From Leucoraja ocellata (taxonomy: Eukaryota): 40,188 nucleotides of DNA. A model generated the notes under the pieces. That model was not told where the DNA came from, made no database searches, and worked only from the letters and a program-made list of their open reading frames with translations. Both the position numbers and the translations under genes were made by a program. Below, piece by piece: positions 1 through 40,127 of the stretch. The DNA lies in assembly GCA_036785375.1 (NCBI GenBank), contig JAWMAR010000030.1:5890001-5930188 (forward strand). Reading direction: 5' to 3'. Numbering within the stretch: the first letter of the stretch is position 1; every line of letters begins with the position of its first letter.

Positions 1-1231
1 CAAATTAATAAACTTTTCCATGTCTTGGAGTTCATTGTTTTTACATAACATATTTAGTTGATTGTTTTTCTCAATAAAATACTTTGTCTGCACAGGGGTT
101 TGCCAATTGTATTCATGCTGATTCTTTTAATTATTATTGATATACGGAATTGCTTCAAAAAGGGAATACAACTATCCAACTTCTGAAAGCCAACAAAACT
201 GCAATCTCAGTCATACTTCCTGAAACTCAAATACTTTCAAGTTTCTTATTCTGAAATGGTGATGAAGTGATTATTGTAATTAAATTGCATTGAATAATGT
301 TATTCCATCCCATAGCCATGGAAGTAAATTGCTACTCATTTATTTTGTTTCACTAGCGATCTTTGAACTCCCTTCCTGACAACACTTGCAGTGCCTTCAC
401 AGGCAGCTTGGAGGCACTTACACATCACAAATTAACCCCGTCTACAGCAGGCCAGGGTTCAATACCACCACGTCAAGAGCAACAAACCAGTTTGGACACA
501 CTTACATACCACGAATTATTTTTTTTTAATCCAAAGGACACAAAAATTTTTACCAGTTATTGAAGGTTCAGCTTCATATATATCTGTAAATAAACCAAAT
601 AAAAATGTGGCGAATGGAGCAGTTACACAGAAGTCTCCCTTGAATTTCATGAGGATGGCAGTGGAAAACAAAGGCTTGGCCTGTGATTTTCTGAAAACTA
701 TAGTTCTTTAGCATCAATATGGTGGAGAATTTAAGAACATCAACTACCTCTTGAAATGTGTGTCTACTTACCTGACAATGCAAATGTAAGTTCAGTTGTT
801 TATGAAGATATTTATGAAGATATAACAGTAGGTTTTTTTTATTGAGAAGGCCACATCCTCAGAGGATTGTCATCTGGAGGCTTTGAACTATTTGGCATTT
901 CACACTTAATATTCTGTGATGGAGCGGACACCTCAGGGCAACGCTGCCAAAGTCAGAGAAGTCAGTAAACTGGAGTTGCAATTAAAACTGGAATTGACAA
1001 GGTTATTCTTCTAAAAGGAAAAACTGAAACAATTCCCAATGGAGAACAGCTGTGAAAGGCTGCTCGTTATGCCAAAAATTAATGTTCTTTATGGTTGAAG
1101 AAAGGAATTGAGCTGGATTGGGGAGTAAAGTGGTGAGACAAAAGAGAGAAATGTTCTCCTTAAATATGGAATTCAATTTGAACCTAATAGCTGGAAAAGC
1201 CCAAAATGGCATGTATAAGATAAGAGGTTTT

Positions 1232-2548
1232 TGCCCCATAGCTACGCCTTGGATTTGGAGGAAATGGGAGGAGTCAAAGGACGCACATGGGCCCGAGCTA
1301 TGCCTTCTTCTTTGTAGGGTACATCGAAAATCCTTGTTCGAGGCGTACCGTGGGCCTATCCCCGAACTCCACCTCCGCTACATTGACGACTGCATTGGTG
1401 CTACCTCCTGCGCCCATGCAGAACTCACTGACTTCATCCATTTCACCACTAACTTCCATCAAGCACTCAAATTTACCTGGACCATTTCCGACATCTCCCT
1501 CCCGTTTCTAGACCTTACCATCTCCATCGCAGGTAACAGACTACTGACCGACATCTACTACAAACCCACTGACTCCCACGGCTATCTGGACTACACTTCT
1601 TCCCACCCTGCTTCCTGTAAGGACACTATCCCTTACTCACAATTCCTCCGTCTACGCCGCATCTGCACCCAGGATGAGGTGTTCCAAACCAGGGCATCGG
1701 AGCGTCCTCATTCTTTAGGGAACGGGGGTTCCCCTCTTCGACTATAGATGACGCTCTCACCAGGGTCTCCTCTATATTCCGTAGCTCCATTTTCACACCC
1801 CATCCACCCCCCCCCCCTCATAACAAGGACAGAGTCCCCCTTGTCCTCACCTTCCACCCTACCAGCCGTCGCATAAAACACATAATCCTCCGACATTTTC
1901 GGTACCTCCAACGGGTTCCCACCACTGGCCACATCTTCCCATCTCCTCTCCTTTCTGCTTTCCGCAGAGACCGTTCCCTGGTCAATTCGTCCCTTCCCAC
2001 CCAAACCACCCCCTTTCCCTTGTACTTTCCCTTGCAACTGCAGGAAATGCTACACTTGTCGCTTTACCTCCCCCCTCGACTCCATCCAAGGACACAAGCA
2101 GCCTTTCCAGGTGAGGCAGAGGTTCACCTGCACCTCCTCCAACCTCATCATTTGCATCCGCTGTTCCAGGTGTAAACTGCTCTACATTGGTGAGGCTTGG
2201 CAATCTTGCAGGCTTGGCAATCGCTTCGCCCAACAGCTCCGCTCAGTTCGCAATAACAAAACTGATCTCCCGGTGGCTCAGCACTCCAACTCCCCCTCCC
2301 ATTCCGAATCTGACCTTTCTGTCCTGGGCATCCTCCAGGGCCAGAGTGAGTTCCACCACAAATTGGAGGTGTAGCACCTCATATTTTGCTTGGGTAGTTT
2401 ACACCCCAGCAGTATGAACATTGACTTCTCCAATTTCAGGTAGTCCTTGCTTTCTCCTTCCTTCCCCTCCCCGTCCCAGCTCTCCCACAGCCTATGCCTC
2501 TTCCTTTCTTTTTCCTTCCCGCCCCCCCCCCCCAGCATTTTGTCTACC
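1232..2548 (+). mobile_element. 5'-truncated, frameshifted Penelope-like retroelement (RT C-terminal half plus GIY-YIG endonuclease)
   Basis: RT motifs MGPSYA, LRYIDD, FLDL and YYKPTD (1287-1750). GIY-YIG-type NLIICIRCSRCKLLYIGE..RLGNRF (2111-2374), then a pyrimidine-rich tail and a terminal-repeat remnant CAGCATTTTGTCTACC. Confidence 0.92.
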
Positions 2549-4128: not shown

Positions 4129-6149
4129 TTTATTGCAAAAATATGAGTTGCATTTCCTAGCACTGCAATTAAATACCAATTGGTACATACATTTTCCAGT
4201 TCACATTTCATCGGCTGTAATAGCTGTACACATTTTAACAAGAATACATTAGCAATAATATCAAGCATTCTAAGCAGACAAGTATGAAAGTACAGTAAAA
4301 ATCTGTAAACCATTTTCTGCAATAAATTCTTCAACTCCACAAATGTACACCCGTAACTTTTAAATTCAGTAATCTTTACAAGATATACACAAGGGTGTGA
4401 ACAGCAGAAAATAACTTTCCTCTCACCGGTGGAACAGTTACTTCCATGTAACAGCAGACATTACAACAGCTTATATTAAGCATTGACTGCTGACACTTCA
4501 CATAGATCTTTAGCAGTTTGGAAAATTGGCAAGGCTTTACAAACTTCCGCAAAGCAGTATAATGCACATCATAAAAATAATAGATGAATAAGAGGAAATT
4601 GAAGGCAAGCTCCTCTGGGTCCAGCAGATTATTTTGGGCTGGAACCCGTTGAATATGGCCGTCTCATTGCCTTCTAACTTCCTGCTAATTATCCGATCTT
4701 CATACATCCAATCTCCTTTTCCACTATTTGTCACATCATCACACTCAAGCTCAATGTCCGAGAACACACACACTTCAATAATTACATTTAACCTCCATCC
4801 TTCATTATTCTGAGTGTACAGCAGCATCTTATCCCTGGTGGCCCTCTGTGAAACAATATCCATACCCTAACATTAGATCCAAAATCAAATAGAGTTTCTA
4901 TTATATACATTTCCACAAGACAGTGAATGTCAATGTGTTTTTGCTCTTACATGAGTGTTACAAAAATAAAAACTTGTTCACAATTGGCAAGAAACCAAGT
5001 ACGCAACCAAACAAATTAGGATTGCATTAAAGCTGGACAGAAAGCTGAATTTGCACACTGGTTGATCATTTAATACACTTCGAGTTCCAACATCTGAGAT
5101 TCCTGCATGTGAAGTTGATCAGTTGCTGCAGAAATACACACTGAAAGAACAACAGGGTTCAGATTCTACAGAACCTTGCTGATCCACCCAATTCCACGCT
5201 CCATTATTTGTAAAACCAGTAACCTAACAAATCAAATTTGCAAAACACCTTGGATAAATTAGAAAGAAAATGTAGATGAAAACATTAAACATCCATCGCC
5301 AGTACAGATGCTGGAGATACACAGTAGATCAGGCCACATCCAGTACAGACGCTGGAGATACACAGCAGATCAGACCACATCCAGTAAGTGGGAAACAAGA
5401 GTTAACAATTCAGACTGATGACCCAAATGTTACCCATTTTCTCTTCCCAGGTACTGCCTGACCTGGTGAGTATTTCTAGCATCCGGTATTTTATTTTAAA
5501 CATCCGGTAGCTAGATTTAAACTTTTAATATCATTTTTTTGAGGTTGAAACCATCAAGCCCTACATAGATTTTGAGGTTTATGTTAAGAAACATCACAAA
5601 GGTGGTCCTTGTACTTATTTTAATACAAAATATTTCAACAGTTAATTTTAATTTTAATTGGGCAAATTAAATTGTGTACTGTAAAATTTCTGGTACAACT
5701 TAACAACATGTAAACTATAAAATGCATTCAGATCATTCTACTGTAGTAGAGATGTTTCACATTTTACCTCAATGTAATGATCCAAATTATCAGTGTCTAG
5801 AGACTACTTGGTCAGATTACATTGCAGAATTGCAATAATTATGTACATCTGCAGGATAGCAGTGCAGTTGCTACATCCAGCATCAGAACTTCAAACTTAA
5901 TTTCTAAATAATAACCAAATATTTTTTATTTTATAATTTAAATAATTCTATCTCAAGCCTTCATCAGTTTTCATTTATACTAATCATTAAATGCACTATC
6001 AATTCTCAATATCACAGCTGATAAGTGATAACTTTTACAGAGTTACTATACATTCAGTTAGTAGCAATATCAGTTTTTAGTCCCAGCATTAGTCTACTTT
6101 AAGATAATTGCCGCGAAACCCATCATTGGTTTTGGCCTGATCACAAAGG
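4129..6149 (-). other. USP54: Probable USP54 3' UTR; candidate AATAAA signals at 5925-5930, 5490-5495 and 4129-4134
   Basis: AT-rich sequence downstream of the stop codon, with TTTATT on the plus strand at the listed positions. The true transcript end cannot be determined from sequence alone. Confidence 0.4.
5299..5490. mobile_element. Palindromic Penelope terminal-repeat-derived element with an internal 41-bp tandem duplication
   Basis: Imperfect inverted arms (ATGCTGGAGATACACAGCAGATCAG / CTGACCTGGTGAGTATTTCTAGCAT). Duplicated units at 5299-5339 and 5340-5380; central CTGATGA at 5415-5421. Confidence 0.7.
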
Positions 6150-6856
6150 TCAGTGTCGTTGTTTAAATCGTGCCATATACTGACTGCAGTTCTGGCAGTA
6201 GACCTCACCAGCATCTGTGAGAACCAGCTGGCATAGAGCACACGGGCGACCTCTGGTGGCAGGTCGTGAAGTAGTCTGTTCAGCTAATGGCCTCCTTGAA
6301 TACACACCAGTACCATTGGTCCTTGCAACAGTTCTGCTGGGCAAACACCTCCTATCACTGTTCTGAGACTGGGTGTAAACTGTCTTCCTCCAATCCTCAT
6401 CAGGAGGTACATCAAGACGAAGAGGACCTGAAACAGTGGACCGTGAAGACTTAAAGCAAGATTTCTGAGGTTCCAAAGTATTTGTCATGAAGTTGCCTTT
6501 TGGAGAAGTATTCTGGCCAATGCCATGCCTCAATCTGTAATTCCCAGGAAAAGTGTCAAAACTATCAGGCACCTCAGGTGTGGTTTGATATGGTGACCTG
6601 CTCAGTGTTGCCATGCTTGGTGGATCTTTGCAAAGTTGTTCGACCTTTGCCTTATCAGGAAGAACTGCTTGAGTAATTCTCTGCTTGATTATGTTTGCAA
6701 CATTAATCTGGTCTTTCCTGATGGGTCTCTGTCCTAAGGTTATTCTCTTCTCCGAGCGTGGCAAAGTACCATAGTTCACTGCAACACTCTGGTAGTTCTC
6801 GTGGTTGAGAGCTTCACCCCGGTCAAACACAGCCAGTAGTTTTTCGATGTTCTTGT
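6150..6856 (-). CDS. USP54: USP54 last coding exon (707 bp including TGA): KNIEKLLAVFDRG...VPPDEDWR...CALC...CQNC...KQRH*
   Basis: Within ORF 6150..6869. The first AG after the T-tract (6857-6858) is phase-1 compatible; DRG, NYxxLP and PPDxDWR motifs are shared with recalled human USP54. Confidence 0.88.
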
Positions 6857-7189
6857 CTATTTTCCACAAAAAACGTGTAAATTAAGATCATTATATTGAT
6901 CAGATCAAAACAGCAATAACAACATTCTACTCCAATTCTTCAGACTAATCCTTCAGTCATTTACCATAACTAATAGAGACCTTGATGAAATAAATACCAT
7001 TTGCACTGATGGGCTGAAGTGCACACGTTCCAATGCAAGGAGTGTTATGGGTAAGGGAGATGAATTTAGACCCTGGATTAGTGCATGGAATTGTGATATT
7101 CTGGCTTTTGCCCAGTTACTATATTTCAGACATGACTTAGGAGATAAAAGAAGAACCAAAGAGAATGTCACACTGAAGAACTCATCCAC

Positions 7190-7768
7190 TGAGGCAGTAT
7201 AGTAAGTCATGTTGCATCTTTATAAAACTTTGGTTTGAACACATTTGGTGTATTGCATGCAGTTCTAGTTTTCCCATTAAAGGAAGGATGTGGAGGCTTT
7301 GAAAAGGGTGTAAAAGAGTGCACCAGGGTATCGCCTGGACTAGAGAGTATTCGCTATAATGAGAGGATGAAGAAATCTGGATTATTTTCAAAAGGGTATC
7401 AACAACTAAGGGGAGCTAAGAGGAGATGTGATAGAATTTTATAAAATTATGAGAAACACAGATGGGGTAAAAATATCAAACACTGGAATGCAAATGTTTA
7501 AGATGGGGGGGGGGGGGGGAGAGTTTAAAAGACATATGCAGTGCAAGTTTTTTGTTACACAGAAATTGGAAGGTGCCTGGAACACAGTACCAGGGCGGGT
7601 TCTGGAAGCAGTCATGATAATGATGTTTAAAAGGCACATGAACATGCAGGGAAGGGAGGCATATGGATCACAGGCAGGCAGATAGGGTTAGTTTTAGTTG
7701 GCATCTTTGGTGGCAACAGACATTCTGAGATGAAGGGCCTATTAGTGCTTTCTGTTCTATGTTCTACA
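7190..7768 (+). mobile_element. Degenerate CR1-clade LINE 3' fragment
   Basis: Translations such as MIEFYKIMR and FFVTQKLEGAWNTVPGRVLEA resemble the CR1 ORF2 C-terminus; tail TTCTATGTTCTA. Confidence 0.8.
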
Positions 7769-7809
7769 TGGCTGTCCTAGCCAATCATTTGCTGAAATAA
7801 TATCAGATC

Positions 7810-7892
7810 ACAGGAATCACCACAGAATTTCCAACTGAACCCAGAACCTGTGAGGCAGCAACGCTAACTGTAGAGCCACTTTGCTGCCCTGT
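7810..7892 (-). mobile_element. tRNA-derived SINE head remnant
   Basis: Reverse complement GGGCAGCAAAGTGGCTCTACAGTTAGCGTTGCTGCCTCACAGGTTCTGGGTTCA resembles the head of the SINE at 38234. Confidence 0.55.
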
Positions 7893-8282
7893 GTGCTGCA
7901 ATACTGCAGTCATTCATGATCCATTGGATTTAATCCACAGCAAGACTGCATGTGTGTTTCTAGCTATTTAAACATTTTGAATCTTACTACAGAATAAAAA
8001 TAAATGGCACAAACATGTCAGAAATTATACAATTTTCCGATTTATTGGCATATGCTGAATGCCAGCAAATGATCAAACAAATCTTATGTTGCAAAATACA
8101 TGCGCGAATAGCACGGTGAACAGTTTAAACACATCCTAATTTGATATCTTAATACTGATATATATGTGAAATAGTACCATATGAAATTAGCACTAGCTAG
8201 ACAAGGGCTTTATAGACAAACGTTTGGACAAATGTACACTGAAAAAGACGTAAATGATAGTATTTTGTGCAAGCAGGATTAC

Positions 8283-8478
8283 CTGAAGCTCTGTTTGCAT
8301 CACCAGACATGTTGGGCTGAAGTGGATCAAACGAGAGGTGTTGTGGTAGGAAGGGATGATGTTGAGGGTAGGAGGCTAACACAAGAGGATCAGGGGAGGG
8401 GCCTTTGGTCACAGTCAATGAAGAGGAACTGACTGATCTGTTTTGAGGCTCCACTTGTTTTCTCACATTTGTTGTTTC
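8283..8478 (-). CDS. USP54: USP54 coding exon (196 bp): ETTNVRKQVEPQNRSVSSSSL...DANRAS
   Basis: Overlaps ORF 8197..8517; matches recalled human SNVRKPLE..SSSSSL. Weak acceptor TTGGAAG, donor CAG/GTAATC; phase 0/1. Confidence 0.8.
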
Positions 8479-8622: not shown

Positions 8623-8763
8623 GATACTGTGAGGAATAACCACAGGATTCTCTCTGTGGGCGAGGATGGTTCCACTCAGGCTGCGAGCAATACGACGGAA
8701 ATTCTCTGCACTGTAACTGTCATTTTCCAAGTTTTCTCTTGGAGAAAACTCATTGAAATGCAC
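8623..8763 (-). CDS. USP54: USP54 coding exon (141 bp): VHFNEF...YSAENFRRIARSLSGTIL...PHSI
   Basis: Overlaps ORF 8545..8838. Acceptor TTTTATAAG, donor GTAAGT; phase 0/0. Confidence 0.9.
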
Positions 8764-9184
8764 CTTATAAAATGAGATGTACACATAAATACATTTTAAA
8801 GTAAAAACTGGAAAACAGTTTAGGAAAAGTTCTAACATCTGTTAACTCATGCCCTAATTAATTTGACTAGCTGCTTTCCAATGATACAAATGCATACATA
8901 TTCTTCACTTGGACTCATTTCCCTTCAACATCAATGGCTATTTCTCGAGCAGCCTTAAAATGCATTCATTAGAAACAGCTTTATTTCCAATTTATTCATG
9001 AGAGTTCATTGACCTGAAGCATTAAATCTGTTTCTCTCTCCACAGATGCAGCTTGATTTGCTGAGTATTTTCAAGTCAACTCAAGTCAAGACAGTTTATT
9101 GTCATGTGTCCCAGATAGGACAATGAAATTCTTGCTTGCTGCAGCACAACAGAATATTGTGAGCAAAAATACAGAACAGTTCAG

Positions 9185-9270
9185 CTCCATAAATGCTGCT
9201 GCACCCAATGAGTTTCTCCAGCACTTTTGTCTACCTTCGATTTTCCAGCATCTGCAGTTCCTTCTTAAAC
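9185..9270 (+). mobile_element. Short Penelope terminal-repeat 3' fragment with a 10-bp flanking direct repeat
   Basis: Ends in CTACCTTCGATTTTCCAGCATCTGCAGTTCCTTCTTAAAC; AACAGTTCAG at 9175-9184 and 9268-9277. Confidence 0.8.
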
Positions 9271-9307
9271 AGTTCAGTTCAATATACACATAAATAAGCA
9301 GATATTT

Positions 9308-9778
9308 ACTAGAATGTTGCCTGGGTTTCAGCAACTAAGTTACAGAGAAAGGCTGAACAAGTTAGGTCTTTATTCTTTGGAGCGCAGAAGGTTAAGGGGG
9401 GGACTTGATAGAGGTCTTTAAAATGATGAGAGGGATAGACAGAGTTGACGTGGATAAGCTTTTCCCACTGAGAGTAGGGAAGATTCAAACAAGAGGACAT
9501 GACTTGAGAATTAAGGGACAGAAGTTTAGGGGTAACATGAGGGGGAACTTCTTTACTCAGAGAGTGGTAGCTGTGTGGAATGAGCTTCCAGTGAAGGTGG
9601 TGGAGGCAGGTTCGGTTTTATCATTTAAAAATAAATTGGATAGTTATATGGACGGGAAAGGAATAGAGGGTTATGGTCTGAGTGCAGGTAGATGGGACTA
9701 GGGGAGAATACGTGTTCGGCACGGACTAGAAGGGCCGAGATGGCCTGTTTCCGTGCTGTAATTGTTATATGGTTATAT
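9308..9778 (+). mobile_element. CR1-clade LINE 3' end (relatively young)
   Basis: ORF 9405..9701 (IEVFKMMRGIDRVD...TRGH...FFTQRVVAVWNELP); 3' GAAGGGCCGAGATGGCCTG stem and GTTATATG tail. Confidence 0.9.
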
Positions 9779-10470
9779 AAAGTGTAATAGGCTGTCACAG
9801 TTCAGAGTCTGTTTGTTGGCGAGTTTAATAGCCTGATGGCTGTGGGGAAGGAGCTGTTCCTGAACCTGGATGTAACAGATTTCAGGCTCCTGTACATTTC
9901 TGCCCGATGGTAGCGGAGAGATGAGTGCGAAGCCAGGATGGTGTGGGTCCTTGATGATGTTGGCTGCCTTTTTGAGGCAGCAACTGCAATAGATCCCTTC
10001 GATGGTGGGGAGGTCAGAGCCGATGATGGACTGGGCAGTGGTTACAACTTTCTGCATCTTTTTCAGCTCCTGGGAGCTTAAGTTGCCAAACCAAGCCACG
10101 ATGCAACCATTTATATTTCATTTGGATTATTCCACAGATTCTTCACGAGAAGATTGGCACAGTGTTTTAATTTGCCCGACAGAAGAATCATTTTGATAAA
10201 TCAAACTTTCTCTCAAAAGATCAAGATATATCTTTCAAAATGGTAACCAAAGACTTTAAGCTGTTAGATATGCACAATTTACCCTAATACACTATTTATT
10301 CGCACCATTAAACATGAACAGCCTGAGAGAAAGCAACAATTTAACATAAATAGTTGAACCTAGCACATTGCATCATATTTAAAAGCAGATTAAACTTCAA
10401 TTCAATTCAGAATGAAATTTATAACAAGTAAGGAACAATACGTGCCGTGTCTTACAAAGCTATCACGTAC

Positions 10471-30070: not shown

Positions 30071-30339
30071 AGCCAATAGAACTGAAATAAATCCCTTTCA
30101 TCAGATGTTCTCAGAAAATATTCTAATTCCCTACTTAAAGGTTCACATGTGGGGCCAAAAATTAATCAATATTGAATAATTAAATCTTTCTTTTCAGATT
30201 TTGTCTCACCAATTGTAAAATTAATTTTTTGAAAATGACAACCACAAAGTCTTAATTAACTCCATTATGCTGGGTTCTGCCATACCACGGACTGATTTTC
30301 AATTCTTGGAGTCACCAATCGTTTTACAATTTATAGTAC

Positions 30340-30510
30340 CTGTATCCCTGCTGCTTTGAGAAGCTGTGTCGTTTTCCATGTTGCAAATCACTGTACCCTG
30401 TGAATCAGATGAGAAATGGCTGACCATAGACTCTTGATGACTGTGCTTGTAATGGTAGCTCTCATTCGAAGAATCTGTTCTGCTGTCACTGGATATAGAT
30501 GGCTCCCTTC
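30340..30510 (-). CDS. USP54: USP54 coding exon (171 bp): [15 protein letters not shown]...SQSSRDTG
   Basis: Overlaps ORF 30299..30532. Acceptor TTTTACAG, donor GTACTA; phase 1/1. Confidence 0.94.
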
Positions 30511-32174
30511 CTGTAAAACCCCATAAAAACAAGTCTGAAAGACCATCTACACCACATCATATGTTCTAGACAACCACACCTGCCATCTAAATGGGTATTG
30601 GTGTGCCCAGTTTGGGTAAAGACATGTGTATGAGTGACATGCACGCCAGTATTTTCACTTTACACCAGAAAGGTTCCTGTGAATCATCTCACAATTGAAT
30701 ATGTTAATTGAACAGAAAACTCAATGACTTTTAATTAAATGCTCCATATAAATTTTTAACAAGCAGTTTTAAAAACAGACTATGCCAGTCTCCATTTAAC
30801 TAGACATTGTTTCCAAGGTAAACAAATAAATGCTGTCAAGCAAGTGCAAAGAAAATTTGTGTTTTTAGTCTGAATACATGGTTTTGCATTCTGACTCGAA
30901 ATGACACCCAGTGAAGAACTAATGAGCCGCAATTGGAGCTAGTAACTGAACAAATCCTCACATGCTTTCAATCCTTTCCATCTATAGCCCCAAACCCAAC
31001 ACCAAATTAAGTTCCAGACATGCAGCTGCCCACTGCACCCATATATCATTTGCAAGATAGTCACTCCTATTTAATTTATACTCACTAACAATTAGGCGTA
31101 GTTCCAATGTTTTCTTCAGCAAAATGTCTTTGGAGGAAAAAAGCAGGAATTCCATCCAGAAGCACAGACCAAAAAGACAGCCCAAGCAGCTTAACCGAGT
31201 TCTGCTAACACTCAAAAAACTGGAAACAAATCCTCAATGCTCACCTTCGTAGTAAACTGAGCAGTGCATTTACCAACGTTGCTTTTCTTTGTTGGTAATT
31301 AGCCCCAAATGGATAGATCACACCTGGATAATTTGCAAAATCTACAGTAATTGTAGATACTGTCACAGTTGTATAGGAACAAGTTGCAGAGCAAAGGATT
31401 TTAGCACCTCTGGCAATTATCCAGTGCATTGGGCAGTAACTTCAAGACTGTTTTATTGTCATATGTCCCAAACTTAAAACTGGGCCATTTATGGCTGAAA
31501 ACATATAAGGTTTTAAACATCTATGACAGTGGGCACCCCAGAAAAATACACATATGGCTGAGGATAGCAGCAAATGCCTGCTAGACTCCTCTGGACTAAG
31601 AAAAGTATGGTTCAAGAAGACTCCTCCACCCCATAAATTGCACATTGTCCATCTCTGTTTATAACTCAATGTGCTAGGACAGCATCACGATCAAAACCCT
31701 CTAAATGGAGACTTCATAACATAACATTTTGAATCAAAGAATGAATGGATACAGTGATTTAAAAGCATCGAAGCAAAACATACAATACACTGCTTGCATC
31801 CTGCAACTGCGCTACAGCTTTTCAACCTCAATCTAGATGATGCAAGGAAAACAAAATAGAAGCAACCTCACATTGAAATTGTAATTGAACCTCAAATTCA
31901 AGTGTAATTTTACTCAAAAAATTCTGAAACACAATTATGTAAAATGCTGGTAGCAATCTGTCAGAGCTTTGCTGACGAATTGCCTGAAGGAACATTCTAC
32001 TGAACTGGCATTGAACTGGGGATGGAATGCAAAAAGTTTAATCAAATAAATTAAATTGAACTCTTTCAATTCTATTGAAGCAAAATAAGATGCTCATACA
32101 GACTCTTTACTCAATCTGTTCACAATCAAATTCAGAGATACTAAATAAACCATGAATATAAAAACCATAATTAC

Positions 32175-32340
32175 CTGAATCTTCACTATCATAACAAGTT
32201 CGGCTGTACTGATGGGTGTCTGCTACGGGTAGATCTTGTGCAGATACAGGAGTGCCTCTTGGATCTGCATACAAAAGTAGTAATGGCTGATAATGGCTCT
32301 TAATGCATCTGGTCACAACGTCCTTCCACTTGGGTCCAAT
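32175..32340 (-). CDS. USP54: USP54 coding exon (166 bp), end of USP domain: [29 protein letters not shown]...CYDSEDS
   Basis: Overlaps ORF 32107..32316. Acceptor TTTAG, donor GTAATT; phase 0/1. Confidence 0.95.
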
Positions 32341-33151
32341 CTAAATTGGAAACATTTAGAATTACGACACTGATTATCACTATACAATTTCTACTGCATC
32401 ATCAGCAGTTAAAGTATCAATTGTCTTTAAACTAGATTTCTCAAATCAAATCAACATAGACATGGCCTTCTTAAATTGTAAATTGTGCTCAGCCTTGTTA
32501 CATGCAAACTTATTTGTAGCTAAGTGTGGTGAGGAAACTGAAGCTGTTTTATTCTGCAACAGTAGCAATCCAAAAACATCTATCTGATTGCATTGTGATC
32601 TGGGTTCTGGGAGAGAGACCTTTAATGAAAGAGAACAGGAAGCAGCACTTTGCTCATTTGGCAATCTGAACTTGGAACAGAATGCAGTGTTGAGGTGGAG
32701 AATGCACAAGTTACATACAAACAGTAAGAAAGGCTGCAATGTTACAGGCAAATTTGGATAACACTGCATATCTTAACATTTGTGACACTGCTCTGAATTG
32801 GACATTGTTGTTCGTAGAATTGCTGTTCTGACATCTCCACATTTAAAAGCTGCGTGGTCTCTTTAAAGAAAACCAAATTCAGAGTCTGGGGTATGTTTTT
32901 TTTTGAAAGATTCATTCAGATATGACAGTCAGAATACCCCAGTTCAAAACACCATTCTAAACCAAGTATGGAGGAAGCAAAGACATGAGCTAAGCATTAA
33001 AAATAATGCATATGAAATGGCTGTCAACATTATTCATGTGCTCATATTATTGCCTACCCTGAAGCAATCAGCCACTGAGGCCAGAAATAAGAATAACTCT
33101 TGGACTAGATTGCAGTGACAAGATGTGATATTTTAGGAAAAGATCACCTAC

Positions 33152-33301
33152 CTCTTTCACATGAGCATCATCAAAATACATCCATTTGCGAATTTTTGTT
33201 TGGAGGAAGAAGGTAGAATAGTGTTTTCCATAGTAACACACCATGCCGACCAAATAAAGCTCTGTATGCTTAGCTTTGTCATCCGTCACTCGATAGAATA
33301 G
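33152..33301 (-). CDS. USP54: USP54 coding exon (150 bp), His/Asp box: [50 protein letters not shown]
   Basis: Overlaps ORF 33068..33289. Acceptor TTTGACAG, donor GTAGGT; phase 0/0. Confidence 0.96.
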
Positions 33302-34571
33302 CTGTCAAATAAAAGGATATCCTTTGGCGCATGGAATTGTGACAGGCTATTTTTAAACCAGCCTCAGTTAACCACATTGAGAAAATTTCAAGTCATATTT
33401 TAAGTCAAGTTAATATCATGTTTTTTTTTAAGAAAACAAAGTGGTGTTCCTTATCAACAAGTTAAAGCTGCAAATATTGCTTAAATTATTTGAAGTCAAA
33501 CGAATTAGCCAGTTGCGTACAAATCAATGTGTACAGTGAAACCACATGGTGCTCTATTTGCTCTAGATGTGATCTTGTTAAATATGACGCCATATTATAT
33601 GTAAAAAGTTGTGCACGTTTTGGCAAAAGGATTTATCAGACATTATCAATTAATGAATTGTAACACACGTACATATATATATATATTGCAATGAAGAAAC
33701 ATTCCTTATTCCTTAAGAGGGAGAAGGAGGAGGGGGGAGGGAGGGGATAGCTGGAAATAAGTCGTCAAATCTGCAGTTAATAGTACATTTTTGTTATCTT
33801 TGGTATAGCATTGTTTTTCAAGTGTCTTAAAAGCCACAACAATCCCCACAAAAACATAGGCAGCTTTCTAGTTAATATCTAGTTTAATTCTAAAGATATC
33901 ACCATCTTCGGCGTTGTTAACACTGGTTCTTTTATCAATCGTAATGAAACCTTAAAGGACTGGGGTCTTTCTGGTCTCACCCTGCCTCAGATGTGAAGGG
34001 CCGTTTTTGCTGACTGCTTTAACATGGAATCAGGCAGCAAGATCCTCGCAGCGATAAAGCCTGACATTGTAAAAAGGCCTGGCCCACAGTTTAGCAGCTT
34101 TTAGCGCAAACAAATATAAGGGTACGTCTTCGTTCTGTGCAAGTCACTAATTGATATTTGTACCTTTTATATATTCTAACATTTTAAAAATTATGAAAAT
34201 GAAGCAAATAATTACATTTTTTTTAAATAAGGTTAATTCAAAACACACTAAAACAGTAAACTAATGTAAATTAATTTTGATAATTCACCTTTCTCTTTGT
34301 TTCCTAATCTGCAGGCAAAGATGAATGTGGTCTCTGATCCTATTCCATGACTGGCCTATATTTGAACCAAAGGGTGATTTTCCAAGTGCAATGCTAGGGA
34401 ATCTCAGCAAGACTGGATTCTACTGGTACCATTCATGGAAAATCCAGCCATGGAGCGTCATGACAACTGCAATGCCATCCGTCACTAAGTAAATCTAAGA
34501 CTGTTAATGGGTTTCTGTCATTGGAATGGCTGAAATGCTAGCGCTTCCAAAGATTCATCATAATATGGAGA

Positions 34572-34765
34572 CACATGGAACTGCAGATGTTGGAATCTTT
34601 AGTAAAACACAACGTGTTGGAGCAAGTCAGCGGGTCTGTGGAGGGAATGGGTAGGCAACGTTTCAGGTCAGGACCCTTCTGGTTATAACCCAAAACATCA
34701 GCTATACATTCCTTCCACAGATGCTGCCTGAACCATTGAGTTTCTTCAGTACTTTGTGTTTCACT
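34572..34765. mobile_element. Palindromic Penelope terminal-repeat element
   Basis: Arms TCTGTGGAGGGAATG / CATTCCTTCCACAGA and AAACACAACGTGTTGGAGCAAGTCAG / TGAGTTTCTTCAGTACTTTGTGTTT; minus-strand GAAGGGTCCTGACCTGAAACGTT. Confidence 0.78.
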
Positions 34766-36342
34766 TCATAATAATATGTTTGAATGAATGACAAACTTTG
34801 ATGGAAGTTGATATGAGTGGGCTGACATTACAGGGTAAGATATAAGTGTTGAGCTTATGTGTGATTTTACAGTGAATCCAACATCATAAAGATCACTTGG
34901 TATACAGAGCAGTGTATAATTAATTATATTTCAGTTTTTCATTAGTTTTCAGCCATTACAGGTTAACTGACAGTGGCCTCTGGAAAATATACACAAGAAA
35001 ATCACACTAACAGCTAAAAGGGAATAATTACCATGTCTAGGGGTGTGATTTTATTTTATTAATTTATCATTTATTTCCAAATTCCACCAGAAGAAAGCTC
35101 CAAGAGAAGTCTCATGCAATTCCAGACTTACAAGTTTCAGATCCATGTCACATGCCATCATTAATGCAACGGCAAGAACAAATATGTGCAACTGTGTGCA
35201 AAATAACTGAATACAATAATTCATTTTCCAAATACTGAATTGAAATTTGAAAGGAAAAGTGAAACAGCTTGAGATGCAAACCTCACGCTAAATCCAAATT
35301 GTATGCATAAGCAGTAAATCTCACTGTTCCAACTCTTTCCATGTTAGCTGAATTTTCGCCTTTAGTAATTCCTACATCAAACGCCAACTCACAGCAGTGC
35401 ATAATATTTTACAAATGTGATGCAGTGAATTTTGGCAAATAGCTGATGCATCAAATGGATTCACTATTTCACTCAATGTTTTGAAGCCTCCTGTTGCCAA
35501 AAGACTACTGTAGCTCAGGCCAACAGATCCATCATGTTTCTTATACTCCTTCACAGTGAACTCCACATTCACTAATTATCTTGTGCCTTTGTAACTTGCT
35601 GCTCCCATCCATGCAGCTTAGTCTCTGTCATTGCACACCTCAACATATAATTTTCTCCTCTTTCATCCATGTCATTAATACTCTTTCAAAATGTTGACAC
35701 CATAGGCTAAATACTTAGGCAATGTGGCACTTGTCACATCCAGAGTATTCTTTCTTTTTTTTTTAATTGCTATCTCTCACCCCCCAACCAGTCAACAAAG
35801 TTATGTCGAATTCCATGAACATTTATTTTTTGATAATCTCTCAACTTGGATCTTTGTCTGGAAGTCCATTACTTCAGATGTTCAAAAAACTATTGGGCAA
35901 CTGGCCTTTAGGCATGTTTCTTAAGACAAACATGGTCCACTTATTTCATGCCCATCGATTCTCTTTGTTCGTGCTTACTTGTCCTAGAATTCGGGTAATT
36001 TACTCACTGCATATAAAACATATTTTGCCAAGTTTGACTCTCCCTTCTTCAATATCTACAGTCAAAAATTTGAGTTTGGAGAGTTTTGGAAAATTATAAC
36101 CAAAATACCTTAAATTCACATGTTAGCTTCTTTGTGAGACCCAGTATTACAAATAAGTTAACAATTCCAATGCCATGCCGTGGAAGTTTGACTATTTTAT
36201 GTCTCTTATCACCACTTATTTTTTATTTTGTATGAGCATCTTGTACTGCTGGCATATTGCTCTTACTTCATTTTGCAAAGTGCATATGTCACAGGTATTG
36301 CATTTCATTTACATTCAGCAATAACACTAATAACCATCTTAC

Positions 36343-36489
36343 ATCTCCAAGTTTGAGGCATGTTCCAAGACTGTGAATAACATCTTCGGCAAGATCAGAA
36401 TGATCCGAGTCCCAGACCAGACCAATAGTGATTATCTCAGGAGAGTTCATCAATACTTTACGGATTCTAATCTTCTCACCGCAGTTGCT
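36343..36489 (-). CDS. USP54: USP54 coding exon (147 bp), USP domain: [49 protein letters not shown]
   Basis: Translated by hand (mostly absent from the ORF track). Acceptor TTTACAG, donor GTAAG; phase 0/0. Confidence 0.95.
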
Positions 36490-37628
36490 CTGTAAAGAAA
36501 ATTAGATTGTTATTAAAATAAATTATTTTAATGATACTGACAAAACTACCTAGTAATGCAGTCGGCAATGAAATCTCAAAGTGCAGTTCTAACTGCAGAT
36601 GAAAGCTTACTGTATATAACACGTTACGTCGCACAGCATTGTACTCAACAGGTGCAGCATCAATGCACTCAGCTGCCAAATTCAATGGTCATATGGTGAG
36701 TTCCCAATCACATCAATCAAGGATAAATGACAATGAACAGGCATGAAAGAGGAACATAGTCAAAGAAAAATATAATTTCCAGTTTTCCCTCTGCAAACTC
36801 ATTAATCTTTGGATTAAATCAATTAAAGATAGTTAAGTGATGTTCTGTTTAAACAACTGATATAATAAATAATGTAAAATATAATCTCTTTATTAAGCTT
36901 CATGAGGGTAGCAAAAAAAAAGTACTCCAGCAACTTAGTAAAGAACCGAGTTACGAAACCAGTAGAGAGCCATGTTCAACATTTAATTTGCCAAGTCAAC
37001 TGAGTGTAATAAATGGGATTGTATCCCTGTCTGACTGAGGGAGAGGAAATGCAGAAAATAGTCAGCCAGCCAAACTTGCTTTTAATCTCCAGCCAGAAAC
37101 TCCACTGGTGGCATTTCATTTGTGAAGCTTGAAGAAAAATTAAAAATAATCAGACTAATTAACAATAAATCTATAGTAACTTGCATTAATAAAAGATGAG
37201 TATCCCAAACTGCAATAAAAAAAATATTAGATACAGAATAGTTGGAAAACTTGCATAATTGCAATAATCAAAAAATATAAACATTGAAATGAACTATAAA
37301 TTTAAGCTCTGCTTTTATTTCAGATTGCTGGCATCTGCAGTTTTTAGCTTTTCAATGCAAATGTGTTATTTGTTTGTTTTCTGTAGTTCACAATATACTG
37401 GACTTATGTAAACAAGTAATAAAAGCTATCTCAAGTGCTATAGGTATAGCTTTGTTTGCTAGCGATTTATGCAGCGTGTTAAAAGCCAACACAACATTTT
37501 GTAGATTTAGGTTTATCATTGTAACGGAGTAAAAAATGGAAAAGAGCTCCAACTTTAAGTCTGAAACATTTAATAACTAAATTTGCAACTTCTACTGATC
37601 TGGTCACTGTGATCATTGATAGGATATT

Positions 37629-37756
37629 AGACAGAAATGCTGGAGAAACTCAGCGCTCGAGACCCATCTTCAGTCTGAGCTGCCTCACCCGCCTGAGTTT
37701 CTCCAGCAATTTTGTCTACCTTCGATTTTCCAGCATCTGCAGTTCCTTCTTAAACA
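37629..37756 (+). mobile_element. Short Penelope terminal-repeat element with a perfect 15-bp flanking direct repeat
   Basis: CATTGATAGGATATT at 37614-37628 and 37755-37769; inverted arms TGCTGGAGAAACTCAG / CTGAGTTTCTCCAGCA. Confidence 0.85.
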
Positions 37757-37911
37757 TTGATAGGATATTGTTCATCATGATATGCCAAAGACATGTTCAA
37801 CAGGAAATGGATATAGACATGACTTTTTTAAACAACCTTTCTAATTAATTAATGCCAATTATTGACCAGCAGTTAGGAGCAATTGAATGCAAAACACTAA
37901 TTTCACATTTA

Positions 37912-38068
37912 TAAACAGAAAATGTTAAAAACATTCAGCAGGTCAGGCAGCATCCGATGGAATAAGAAAGAGAGTTCTGATGAAGGCGCTTTGACCTGAA
38001 ACCTGACTTACTGAGTATTTTCAACATGTTCTGGCTTTAGTTTAGATTTGCAGCATCTGCAATTTTTC
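37912..38068 (+). mobile_element. Degenerate palindromic Penelope terminal-repeat element with a hammerhead core remnant
   Basis: CAGCAGGTCAGGCAGCATC / CTGACTTACTGAG..CAGCATCTGCA; CTGATGA-AGG-CGCTTTGA-CCT-GAAAC at 37977-38002. Confidence 0.72.
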
Positions 38069-38233
38069 TAATGTTCACACAATTTTCAGGATTTGGCATC
38101 TACTTAGCTAACCGCAAATTTATTCAAACATTTTGGATTTTTTTCCAATGTCCATTAAAATATATATCAAGAAATCTTCTGACACCCCCAGCTAGCATGA
38201 TCTAAAGCAAGGTCTCCATCATATACCATAAGT

Positions 38234-38510
38234 GGGTGGCACAGTGGGGCAACGGCAAAGTTGTTGCCTAATAGTGCCAGAGACCCAGGTTCGATCCTAA
38301 TTACGGATGCTGTCTGTACAGTTTGTACGTTCTCCCTATGACTGTCTGCGTTTCCACCGAGTGCTCTGGATTCCTTCCACACACCAAAGACTTATAGGTT
38401 TGTAGGTTAATTGGCATCGGTAAGTTGTAAAATTGGCCCTGGTGTGTGTAGGTTAGTGGACATGGTGATCGCTGGTTGACATGGAATTAGTGGGCCAAAG
38501 GGCCTGTTTT
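38234..38510 (+). mobile_element. tRNA-derived SINE (HE1/V-SINE type)
   Basis: A box TGGCACAGTGG (38237-38247), B box GGTTCGATCC (38288-38297), V-domain-like body and a CR1-derived tail GGGCCAAAGGGCCTGTTT. Confidence 0.85.
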
Positions 38511-39714
38511 TTCGCCAAAAATGGAATATTCCGATCACTGACGAGCAGAATATAAACCTTAGTCTGAAGTGTATTTAGTATCAAACTAACTCCCAGACCA
38601 GCATCAATTTTTTGTTAGTGCAAGAGAGATATTCAAAATGAGAGAAAAGAAAAAAAGTGAGATATCTGAAACTTAAACGATCACTTTCAAATGGTTTGCA
38701 AAGTTATTTTGGAAAAATCTTAATACTTTTGAAAAATTGACAATGAATATCTATTCAAAAAATGAAGCTCCCCAGTTAATTGTTTAAAATTAGGCTGAAA
38801 AGTAATTAAAAACACTTTTCCCACAAGGATAATACATGTATAGCTTTCCAGTACTAAAACTGCATTTGGATACTGAAACCACCTCAGTAATTTGAACAAA
38901 ATTAATAGGTCAGGTCCTATTTCTTTTATCATCACTCTTCCACTTTGGTCCAAGCAGCAGACGGAAATGGTTTGCAGCCACGGCTGAACTTTTCACTCCC
39001 AACAATAAACAGCAGTCATTGAGATTCTATTCACATTCTCATTCTGGCCTCCAATGGAAGCAAATATCACCATGGAGTTTTAACACAAAGGAGCACCTAC
39101 TCGCATTTAATTGAGTTTTGAACAGATTTTATAATAGCACAGTAACAAAGCAAAGATACTGTGACGCACGCAAACAAGATCATCTGAAATTGATTAAACT
39201 ATATTACAAAACAATAATTCTCTGGACATATTTTTATTTTTAAACACTCTTTGTTAATTTTTGTCCCATGTATTTAAAAAGTGATTTTTTTTCTTGCTCT
39301 CAAGCAAAGAAAAGTAAGACACTAAAGGTGCAGGCTAATCACCTGGATGTCGGTCTACAGTGCCGAGCCATTGAACTGAATGCCCCCAGGCCAAAAGTGG
39401 AATATTCTGATCACTGATTTGATCAGATCTGTCCAACCAACCATAAAGGACAAGCGACCAAATAGTAAGAAACAATTTTCAATCAACTCTGCAGAAGGAA
39501 ACCACCACTCACAGACTTGTTATTCATATTATAATCCACAGAGCTAGAAAAATTACTTTGCATTGTAGGAGTTTAGGGAAATAGAAGCATGATGAGAAGG
39601 GTGAATTTAGAACTATTATCACCTGCATCCTTAAGGTACAGACACCCAAGTATAGAATTCCTTTGAATTTAAGGCAGCATAACTAATGTTAAACAAGAAT
39701 GATTTGACACATAC

Positions 39715-39820
39715 CGGACAGTTCCTAAGATCACCCATTGTGCTTGCATTCTGCAGAAGCTCTCCAAACATGTCAGGCGTCGGTTTCTCACGTCTTTCCA
39801 TCATTCGAATCGCTTGATTA
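39715..39820 (-). CDS. USP54: USP54 coding exon (106 bp), USP domain: [35 protein letters not shown]
   Basis: Acceptor TTTAG at 39821-39822, donor GTATGT at 39714; near-identical to recalled vertebrate USP54. Confidence 0.95.
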
Positions 39821-40127
39821 CTAAACAAAGAGACAAAGAGGCTGGAATTGGTTCCCATGAAAGGCAACAAAGGCTCTGCAGGACAGCAGACATACTGACA
39901 AGTAAATACATTTATTTCCTGAAATGGGTAGATTAAGCTTCATCATGTATTAGACAATGCTATTCTAGTCCAATTAAAACCTGGGTAGGTGATGAGGGTC
40001 AAGCAACGTGCATTGGGATCCTTTGGGATCTGGGTACATTCAAGAAGCAATTGGAGTTAAGGCAGGTGCAAACCCTGGTTATACAGCCAGAGAATAAGAG
40101 GCAAGGGACGGATTGGGCGGGAATAGT

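Follow-up and report, generated by a model that had tools for sequence, protein, structure and literature searches.

The USP54 protein of the skate Leucoraja ocellata ends in a four-cysteine finger whose residues are already present in RefSeq proteins; the finger itself is real and is an ancient, apparently undescribed domain. The motif was located in a window of 40,188 nucleotides, which is the whole stretch of DNA analysed. The C-terminal peptide, translated from positions 6881-6150 of the minus strand, is RPCALCQLVLTDAGEVYCQNCSQYMARFKQRH*. The four Cys codons run from 6242 (start of the first) to 6186 (end of the fourth), and across all six frames of the window the pattern C-x2-C-x11-C-x2-C is unique to this interval. 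Translation and the six-frame scan thus confirm the initial annotation, in which USP54 was proposed to end in a Cys4 finger with A20-type spacing. The host gene was assigned to USP54, from the same gene family as human USP54, human USP53 and Drosophila Echinus: the last exon shares 99% identity with RefSeq protein P0002 of Leucoraja erinacea, residues 168-1786 of P0002 align in order along the minus strand of the window (tblastn), and both an N-terminal USP domain orthologous to that of USP54 and the same exon order were found. The 5' start of the gene falls outside the window. The following features are relevant here.

6186..6242, minus strand: Cys4 core C-x-L-C-x11-C-x2-C of the C-terminal finger (translation, pattern scan, conservation)
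6153..6185, minus strand: predicted helix after the fourth Cys with Y-M-x-R-F, then the C-terminus (AlphaFold, conservation)
6150..6856, minus strand: last USP54 exon, coding part, main frame (stop at 6152-6150, splice joint at 6856)
6390..6422, minus strand: anchor L-R-L-D-V-P-P-D-E-D-W (coordinates computed from the 57-residue distance)
6776..6856, minus strand: second frame of the last exon, 26 residues then a stop (open in the window)
6857..8282, minus strand: last intron, 1426 nt, GT..AG (contig joints)
8283..8478, minus strand: penultimate exon, 196 nt, not a multiple of three (contig joints, translation)
8623..8766, minus strand: exon before the penultimate one, ending in phase 0 (contig joints, translation)
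30338..39888, minus strand: exons for the C-terminal half of the USP catalytic domain, P0002 residues 168-437 (tblastn)

The helix at 6153..6185 belongs to the finger domain, although it lies outside the interval first assigned to the motif. No Pfam family model reaches its cut-off for the finger, so that its description as unannotated holds with respect to Pfam, and no paper describing it was found in a search of mainly open-access literature.

The finger exon is joined to the rest of the gene in assembled contigs. The in-frame joint 8283/6856 (CT..AC) is present in contigs from six of eight sequencing runs, originating from four studies, and splicing at 6856 preserves the frame of the finger. 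The eight runs are not on record as RNA; the contigs bearing the joint were taken as transcripts because the joint lacks the intron. The finger and the stop are covered without a break by contigs spanning 6053-6663, 5957-6460 and 6066-6419; among the contigs listed, none carries both the joint and the stop, and in two raw-read runs the depth on the last exon is near zero. The initial annotation had considered that transcripts might splice out before this segment; the joint found in six of the eight runs leads in frame into the finger. Contigs also continue for about 2 kb 3' of the stop (window 4150-6150, minus strand), close to an AATAAA at 4134-4129, which suggests that the USP54 3' UTR extends to about 4150.

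The finger is a conserved island at the tip of a divergent tail of about 1400 residues. Over its 28 residues, ungapped identity to the skate is 68% in coelacanth, 57% in lungfish, 43% in amphioxus and 36% in bumblebee, compared to 4, 4, 11 and 14% in the same species over the 28 residues just upstream (also ungapped, so that indels lower the figures). Since identity over the finger is far above that of the adjoining residues, its conservation, as judged at the level of sequence, is not due to chance. The spacer between the second and third cysteines is 11 residues in 195 of 195 matches, with a pattern that allowed 8-16. In 102 unique fingers all four cysteines are invariant, in line with the cysteine conservation in non-mammalian orthologues on which the initial annotation relied; a Leu lies between the first two (98%) and a Tyr before the third (96%), and the fourth is followed by two variable residues, Tyr (99%), Met (92%), Ser or Ala, Arg (88%) and Phe (86%). 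The loop after the second Cys is basic in invertebrates (R/K-K-K/R) and polar in fish (Q-Q/L-V/L). The protein ends seven residues after the Y-M pair in 166 of the 195 matches, which would fit a role for a free helix at the C-terminus.

Invertebrate orthologues were retrieved with a catalytic-domain query restricted to proteins of 1860-5000 residues, which gave 89 matches, one from lamprey and 88 from invertebrates, mostly arthropods. The finger, in the form CxLC-x11-C-x2-C followed by YMxRF, stands at the end of 82 of the 88 long invertebrate orthologues, including those of two amphioxus, the annelid Owenia, the brachiopod Lingula, snails, a mussel, crustaceans and insects (echinus). The six models that lack it are from a mite, a psyllid and two Anopheles, together with two apparent fusion models; some of these are probably annotation faults, because other Anopheles do carry the finger. 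D. melanogaster Echinus (about 1700 aa) and other shorter orthologues fall below the length filter, and the Echinus proteins of Musca, Bactrocera and Stomoxys have the finger. With a profile built from fish fingers only, the 82 invertebrate fingers all reach 17.7-48 bits. The retrieved orthologues include no cnidarian, sponge, echinoderm or nematode. The suggestion that the finger is ancestral was therefore borne out, and its age has to be raised: the 82 invertebrate proteins make it bilaterian-wide rather than restricted to fish. On the evidence of these alignments the finger is an ancient module, spanning protostomes to lungfish, that predates the split of flies and fish. In a part of the echinus paper, homology to mammalian USP53/54 is placed essentially only in the USP domain (PMC1950886). 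Through the finger, insect echinus and fish USP54 are connected beyond that domain; tetrapod products lack it.

In vertebrates, the finger ends all 52 matches to the skate last exon, from sharks, rays, a chimaera, coelacanth and teleosts; the query exon contains the finger and the search is thus biased towards proteins that bear it. A second search with the coelacanth tail gave 558 matches, of which the best 120 were used, 106 of them new. Among the matches listed, lungfish and gar carry the finger, two coelacanth models stop early and the finger is found in none of 102 rows from frogs, birds, turtles, crocodilians, squamates and tuatara; these tetrapod rows are protein records and included no named mammal and no salamander. 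An upstream anchor, L-R-L-D-V-P-P-D-E-D-W, is common to amphioxus, lamprey, fish and tetrapods. It is retained in 101 of the 102 finger-less tetrapod rows, and these rows are therefore not merely incomplete. Tetrapod proteins stop 55-58 residues after the D-V/M-P-P of the anchor, and fish fingers start 43-73 residues after it. The finger is likewise absent from 91 additional members of nine tetrapod clusters, and from a caecilian and a snake in a representative search with a turtle tail (56 matches). Two fragments, P0467 and P0473, end 50 residues past the anchor without a finger; we take them to be mammal-like from the end of human USP54 and not from the names of the records. Past the tetrapod stop, no hidden finger was found in the three longer records, P0452, P0337 and P0059. 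As a separate observation, the American crow model P0257 ends in R-Q-C-S-L-W-Q, like the first knuckle of the fish finger; this may be a chance likeness or a relic lying 3' of the bird stop. Of 99 additional fish cluster members, the finger is present in 59; the other 40 are shorter or frame-switched forms.

The lungfish is sister to the tetrapod rows in a tree (80/80), in which tetrapods form a group at 99/96; catalytic domains group by species, and vertebrate rows fall together. Judged from these protein records, the simplest explanation is that the finger was lost once, by truncation, on the tetrapod stem, because the lungfish has it and frogs, the caecilian and all examined sauropsids do not. 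The initial annotation had the finger lost or spliced away in mammals. Its absence from higher vertebrates stands, but a loss in mammals is rejected, the finger being already missing in frogs, the caecilian, the snake and sauropsids, and is moved back to the tetrapod stem. Splicing away applies only in another sense, as annotated frame-switch isoforms of fish and sauropsids omit the finger end. In lamprey, the finger is found in none of the 10 members of the cluster of the USP54-like protein P0161, and a separate loss is possible there; P0161 also has the D-V-P-P anchor in two copies. The finger is apparently missing from the skate USP53 product as well, on the basis of finger-profile scores of at most 9.8 bits in the 160 kb surrounding the USP53-like paralogue. 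With two finger queries, no second finger-bearing gene was found in the skate. Skate matches L003 and L021-L023 (E 2-4) were dismissed, as no Cys4 finger is present there.

The fold of the finger was modelled with AlphaFold, with a mean pLDDT of 73 from the fish alignment and 82 from the wide alignment. The models have short strands and a helix from the third Cys on; a helix following the fourth Cys, as the initial annotation anticipated, is predicted in both. The conserved non-Cys residues lie on the knuckle and the helix (L3, Y15, Y22, M23, R25 and F26). With VIA-align, 32 and 34 chains were retrieved at Z of at least 2 and none at 5 (best Z 3.1 and 2.9), mostly zinc modules such as CRIPT, ribosomal proteins, B-box, GATA, RING and FYVE; with Foldseek against the PDB, the best E values were 6.2 and 3.9. 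PDB sequence profiles gave only partial C2H2, ZZ, CRIPT, L37e and Spt4 matches to the finger, and the two best rows were discounted as summed C2H2 half-matches. Queries of the ESM Atlas with the skate and bumblebee fingers gave no usable match, which shows nothing either way. The fold comparison proposed in the initial annotation thus yielded a treble-clef-like model, but with weak matches throughout (Foldseek E of at least 3.9). The model fits a generic treble clef and proves no family. The C-terminal finger is predicted to fold as a one-zinc treble clef, and the four invariant cysteines alone point to zinc binding.

The relation to A20-type fingers (PF01754) was analysed in sequence and in structure. 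Both share C-x2-C-x11-C-x2-C, an aromatic residue before the third Cys and a helix, predicted in USP54, after the fourth, and both are found on enzymes of the ubiquitin pathway. In contrast to A20, the USP54 finger has no G-F/Y-F/Y-G after the second Cys and no Gly two residues before the third, it has an invariant Leu between the first two cysteines, and its helix carries Tyr at +3, Met at +4 and Phe at +7, shifted from the aromatics of A20. Residues Y614 and F615 of A20 have a role in ubiquitin binding. Their numbering places them at +2/+3 after the second Cys (in a part of PMC12948199). At +2 and +3 an aromatic, and at +4 a Gly, occur in 0, 0 and 1 of 97 unique USP54 fingers, compared to 9, 10 and 9 of 13 skate A20 fingers; the loop equivalent to that of the A20 aromatic pair is basic or polar and variable in USP54 fingers. 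An aromatic directly after the fourth Cys is present in 11 of the 13 skate A20 fingers and in one of the 97 USP54 fingers. The reservation in the initial annotation, that the CGF(F/Y)G signature of A20 is absent, was well founded, as it is absent in 97 of 97.

Profile searches gave a similar picture. The zf-A20 model (Pfam cut-off 21.6 bits) is not among the matches of the skate finger at E up to 10, and the zf-A20 profile has at least 11 matches in the skate genome, none of them at USP54 (150 of 254 candidates scored). On the USP54-finger profile, the 13 skate A20 fingers score 1-12 bits, against at least 48 for its own members; 11 of them fall within their Cys-fixed shuffles, and the other two, at 11-12 bits, exceed theirs (2 and 3 of about 200). 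The model overlays the ubiquitin-bound A20 fingers 2l00, 3vux, 3oj3 and 2c7m at rmsd 1.9-2.1 over 31-33 residues (Z 2.0-2.7). Fragments of Cas9, ribosomal proteins and CRIPT reach equal Z, and one A20 row is at 4.6 A; in one VIA-align run the A20 domain of ZNF216 is the row of lowest rmsd (1.8 over 33). Combined, the absence of the aromatic signature and of any zf-A20 match speaks against A20 membership: the USP54 finger is A20-like in shape but is not an A20 finger.

The commonest sub-threshold Pfam match was Cript (6 of 19 and 15 of 30 members, best E 0.002), ranked among the best 25 of 30 and the best 25 of 41 families. The central finger of CRIPT (PF10235; PDB 7dvq chain 0) gives an ungapped 22-residue match to the USP54 finger; it is the top row of the wide-alignment VIA-align run (Z 2.9), and in Foldseek it aligns at rmsd 1.4 over 26 columns (E 6.7). 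However, CRIPT is a stand-alone protein of 101 residues, the USP54 finger matches only part of its model and the skate finger scores 15 bits, under the Pfam cut-off of 25.5. The likeness to CRIPT probably reflects a common fold and spacing, not family membership.

The last exon is also open in a second frame, which reads W-L-C-L-T-G-V-K-L-S at 6835-6806 (minus strand). Inclusion of exon 8283-8478 keeps the finger frame; skipping it would shift the frame and omit the finger, because 196 nt is not a multiple of three. Second-frame isoforms are annotated in two sharks, gar, salmonids, birds, a turtle and lizards (21 proteins, picked by the pattern W-x-C-x-T) and come from annotation models of other species; in the skate, no exon-skip joint is among the joints listed in the eight runs, whose contigs drop rare forms. 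Codons 2-11 were compared in 10 rows, comprising the skate DNA and nine of 10 species pairs with close kin included (Pogona was dropped because the pattern failed). All 10 residues are invariant in the second frame and five of 10 vary in the main frame; main-frame third positions vary at none of the 10 codons, two first positions being undetermined. In four of five later rows, the final three residues of the second frame diverge. The opening of the last exon, where the second frame looks the more constrained of the two in sharks, ray-fins and sauropsids, is likely a dual-coding region whose second-frame use would omit the finger, and an RNA-level element could contribute to the codon constraint. 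Alternatively spliced dual-coding terminal exons have been described in vertebrates, many of them as old as jawed vertebrates, and as in USP54 the frame, and with it the C-terminus, depends on splicing further upstream (from a part of bioRxiv 10.64898/2026.05.28.727796). USP54 differs from them in that one frame carries a finger; it does not appear in the main text of that work, nor in eight supplementary files of PMC13160074.

What the finger does was considered in the light of these properties. The reading that we favour, and to which we would give an even chance, is that it is a docking tip for a partner protein other than ubiquitin. The last 30 residues would constitute an ancient, family-specific four-cysteine module, predicted to be a one-zinc treble clef, whose Y-M-x-R-F helix would bind a conserved partner and so place the deubiquitinase at its site of action; in jawed fish the tip would be switchable, as skipping one exon shifts the last exon to its conserved second frame. 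A binding module is suggested because the folded tip stays constant on a diverging tail and the invariant residues lie on one helix. We infer that the invariant non-Cys residues form a binding face, that its partner is a protein distinct from ubiquitin and that truncation removed the finger from tetrapods. Against docking, the invariant Tyr, Met and Phe could simply be the core of the finger, and the finger is dispensable in tetrapods and lamprey. In Drosophila, echinus can be rescued by splice forms that lack the catalytic Cys, and L792-Stop abolishes function only in part (reported in a part of PMC1950886), and non-catalytic parts of the protein therefore matter; these alleles do not isolate the finger, as L792-Stop removes over half of the protein.

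The main rival is ubiquitin binding via a non-A20 surface. A terminal zinc finger on a deubiquitinase carries a fair prior of ubiquitin binding, as in OTUD7A/B, which favours this alternative. The finger would then read ubiquitin, for example K63 chains, by its helix face and recruit a K63-directed enzyme to ubiquitinated cargo. The catalytic domains of human USP53/USP54 do cleave K63 chains, and the host is a K63-directed deubiquitinase with a weakened S1 site (both from a part of bioRxiv 10.1101/2024.07.07.602376). The helix of A20 ZnF7 contacts the Ile36 patch of ubiquitin (in a part of PMC5135002), the four ubiquitin-bound A20 fingers are among the overlays of lowest rmsd, and an unchanging ubiquitin would suit an unchanging finger face. 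Those overlays reach only Z 2.0-2.7, however, a level shared by CRIPT, by ribosomal proteins and by fragments of Cas9; the USP54 helix residues are in a register other than that of A20, and tetrapods lost the finger though ubiquitin stayed constant. We consider this alternative rather unlikely, though a serious one.

It is improbable that the finger works within USP54 itself, by dimerising or by folding back on the catalytic domain, a tail motif or the MIT domain predicted in the USP54/USP53 family (in a part of PMC9477494), and thereby tunes activity. A role of this kind would agree with the position of the finger, which is always at the extreme end of the same protein and matched no second skate gene, and with the existence of isoforms with and without it. 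By a coarse comparison, however, the catalytic domain has three conservative tetrapod-specific positions against four and two in finger-keeping controls, and an equally coarse search for 5-residue words shared between invertebrate and vertebrate tails returned nothing beyond three weak words and low-complexity stretches. A genuine A20-type finger, diverged but binding ubiquitin like Rabex-5, ZNF216 or A20 ZnF4 would explain the exact spacing, the aromatic before the third Cys and the low rmsd of ZNF216, and is nevertheless highly improbable given the +2/+3 aromatics in 0 of 97, the lack of a zf-A20 match at USP54 and profiles that do not cross-match. Binding of nucleic acid or an acidic lipid, as by ribosomal, GATA or FYVE-type treble clefs, is suggested by the invertebrate basic triplet after the second Cys and by such proteins among the fold neighbours, but is just as improbable, as the basic patch is not kept in fish and the invariant residues are hydrophobic.

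We tentatively propose a broader history, one that is less likely than not to be correct: an unnamed finger reading ubiquitin or a substrate would date from the ancestor of flies and fish, jawed fish would drop it by a conserved splice switch and tetrapods permanently, at the transition to land, and the human enzyme would operate without an ancestral targeting module that is retained in flies and zebrafish-type fish. The activity of USP53/USP54 was shown only recently, in work that rests on isolated human catalytic domains. The finger is a small, sharply defined and testable domain that is invisible from human sequences and bears on how long tails aim enzymes; fish and flies used as models differ from tetrapods in having it. 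It could account for the catalysis-independent role observed in the fly eye; should it turn out to read ubiquitin, it would represent a new ubiquitin-binding surface on an A20-like fold.

Several further features of the gene and the locus were noted. In the last 350 residues, a word K/R-x-V-S/T/G-F, similar to a PP1-docking motif, occurs in 26 of the 89 long proteins (P0160-P0248), in none of 13 cartilaginous fish and in none of 38 teleosts. The start of the large exon (window 13991-13960, minus strand) has a second frame ending R-L-A-R-S-K-Y-C-stop, and isoforms of 800-870 residues ending in this or a similar sequence are annotated in skates, sharks, a chimaera, teleosts, a bird and a caecilian; decay of these transcripts is possible because the stop lies in an internal exon. 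Window positions 1112-2374 and 9000-10100 contain fragments of retrotransposon-type reading frames, with reverse-transcriptase and GIY-YIG-like words, as well as an element of high copy number to which many reads map. The USP54 locus is present a second time, in inverted orientation, 1.5 Mb off (L002, G000:C30 7.41-7.44 Mb; 99.3% identical over 3129 bases); this copy is more likely an uncollapsed haplotype than a true duplicate, because other genes are also found twice in the assembly.
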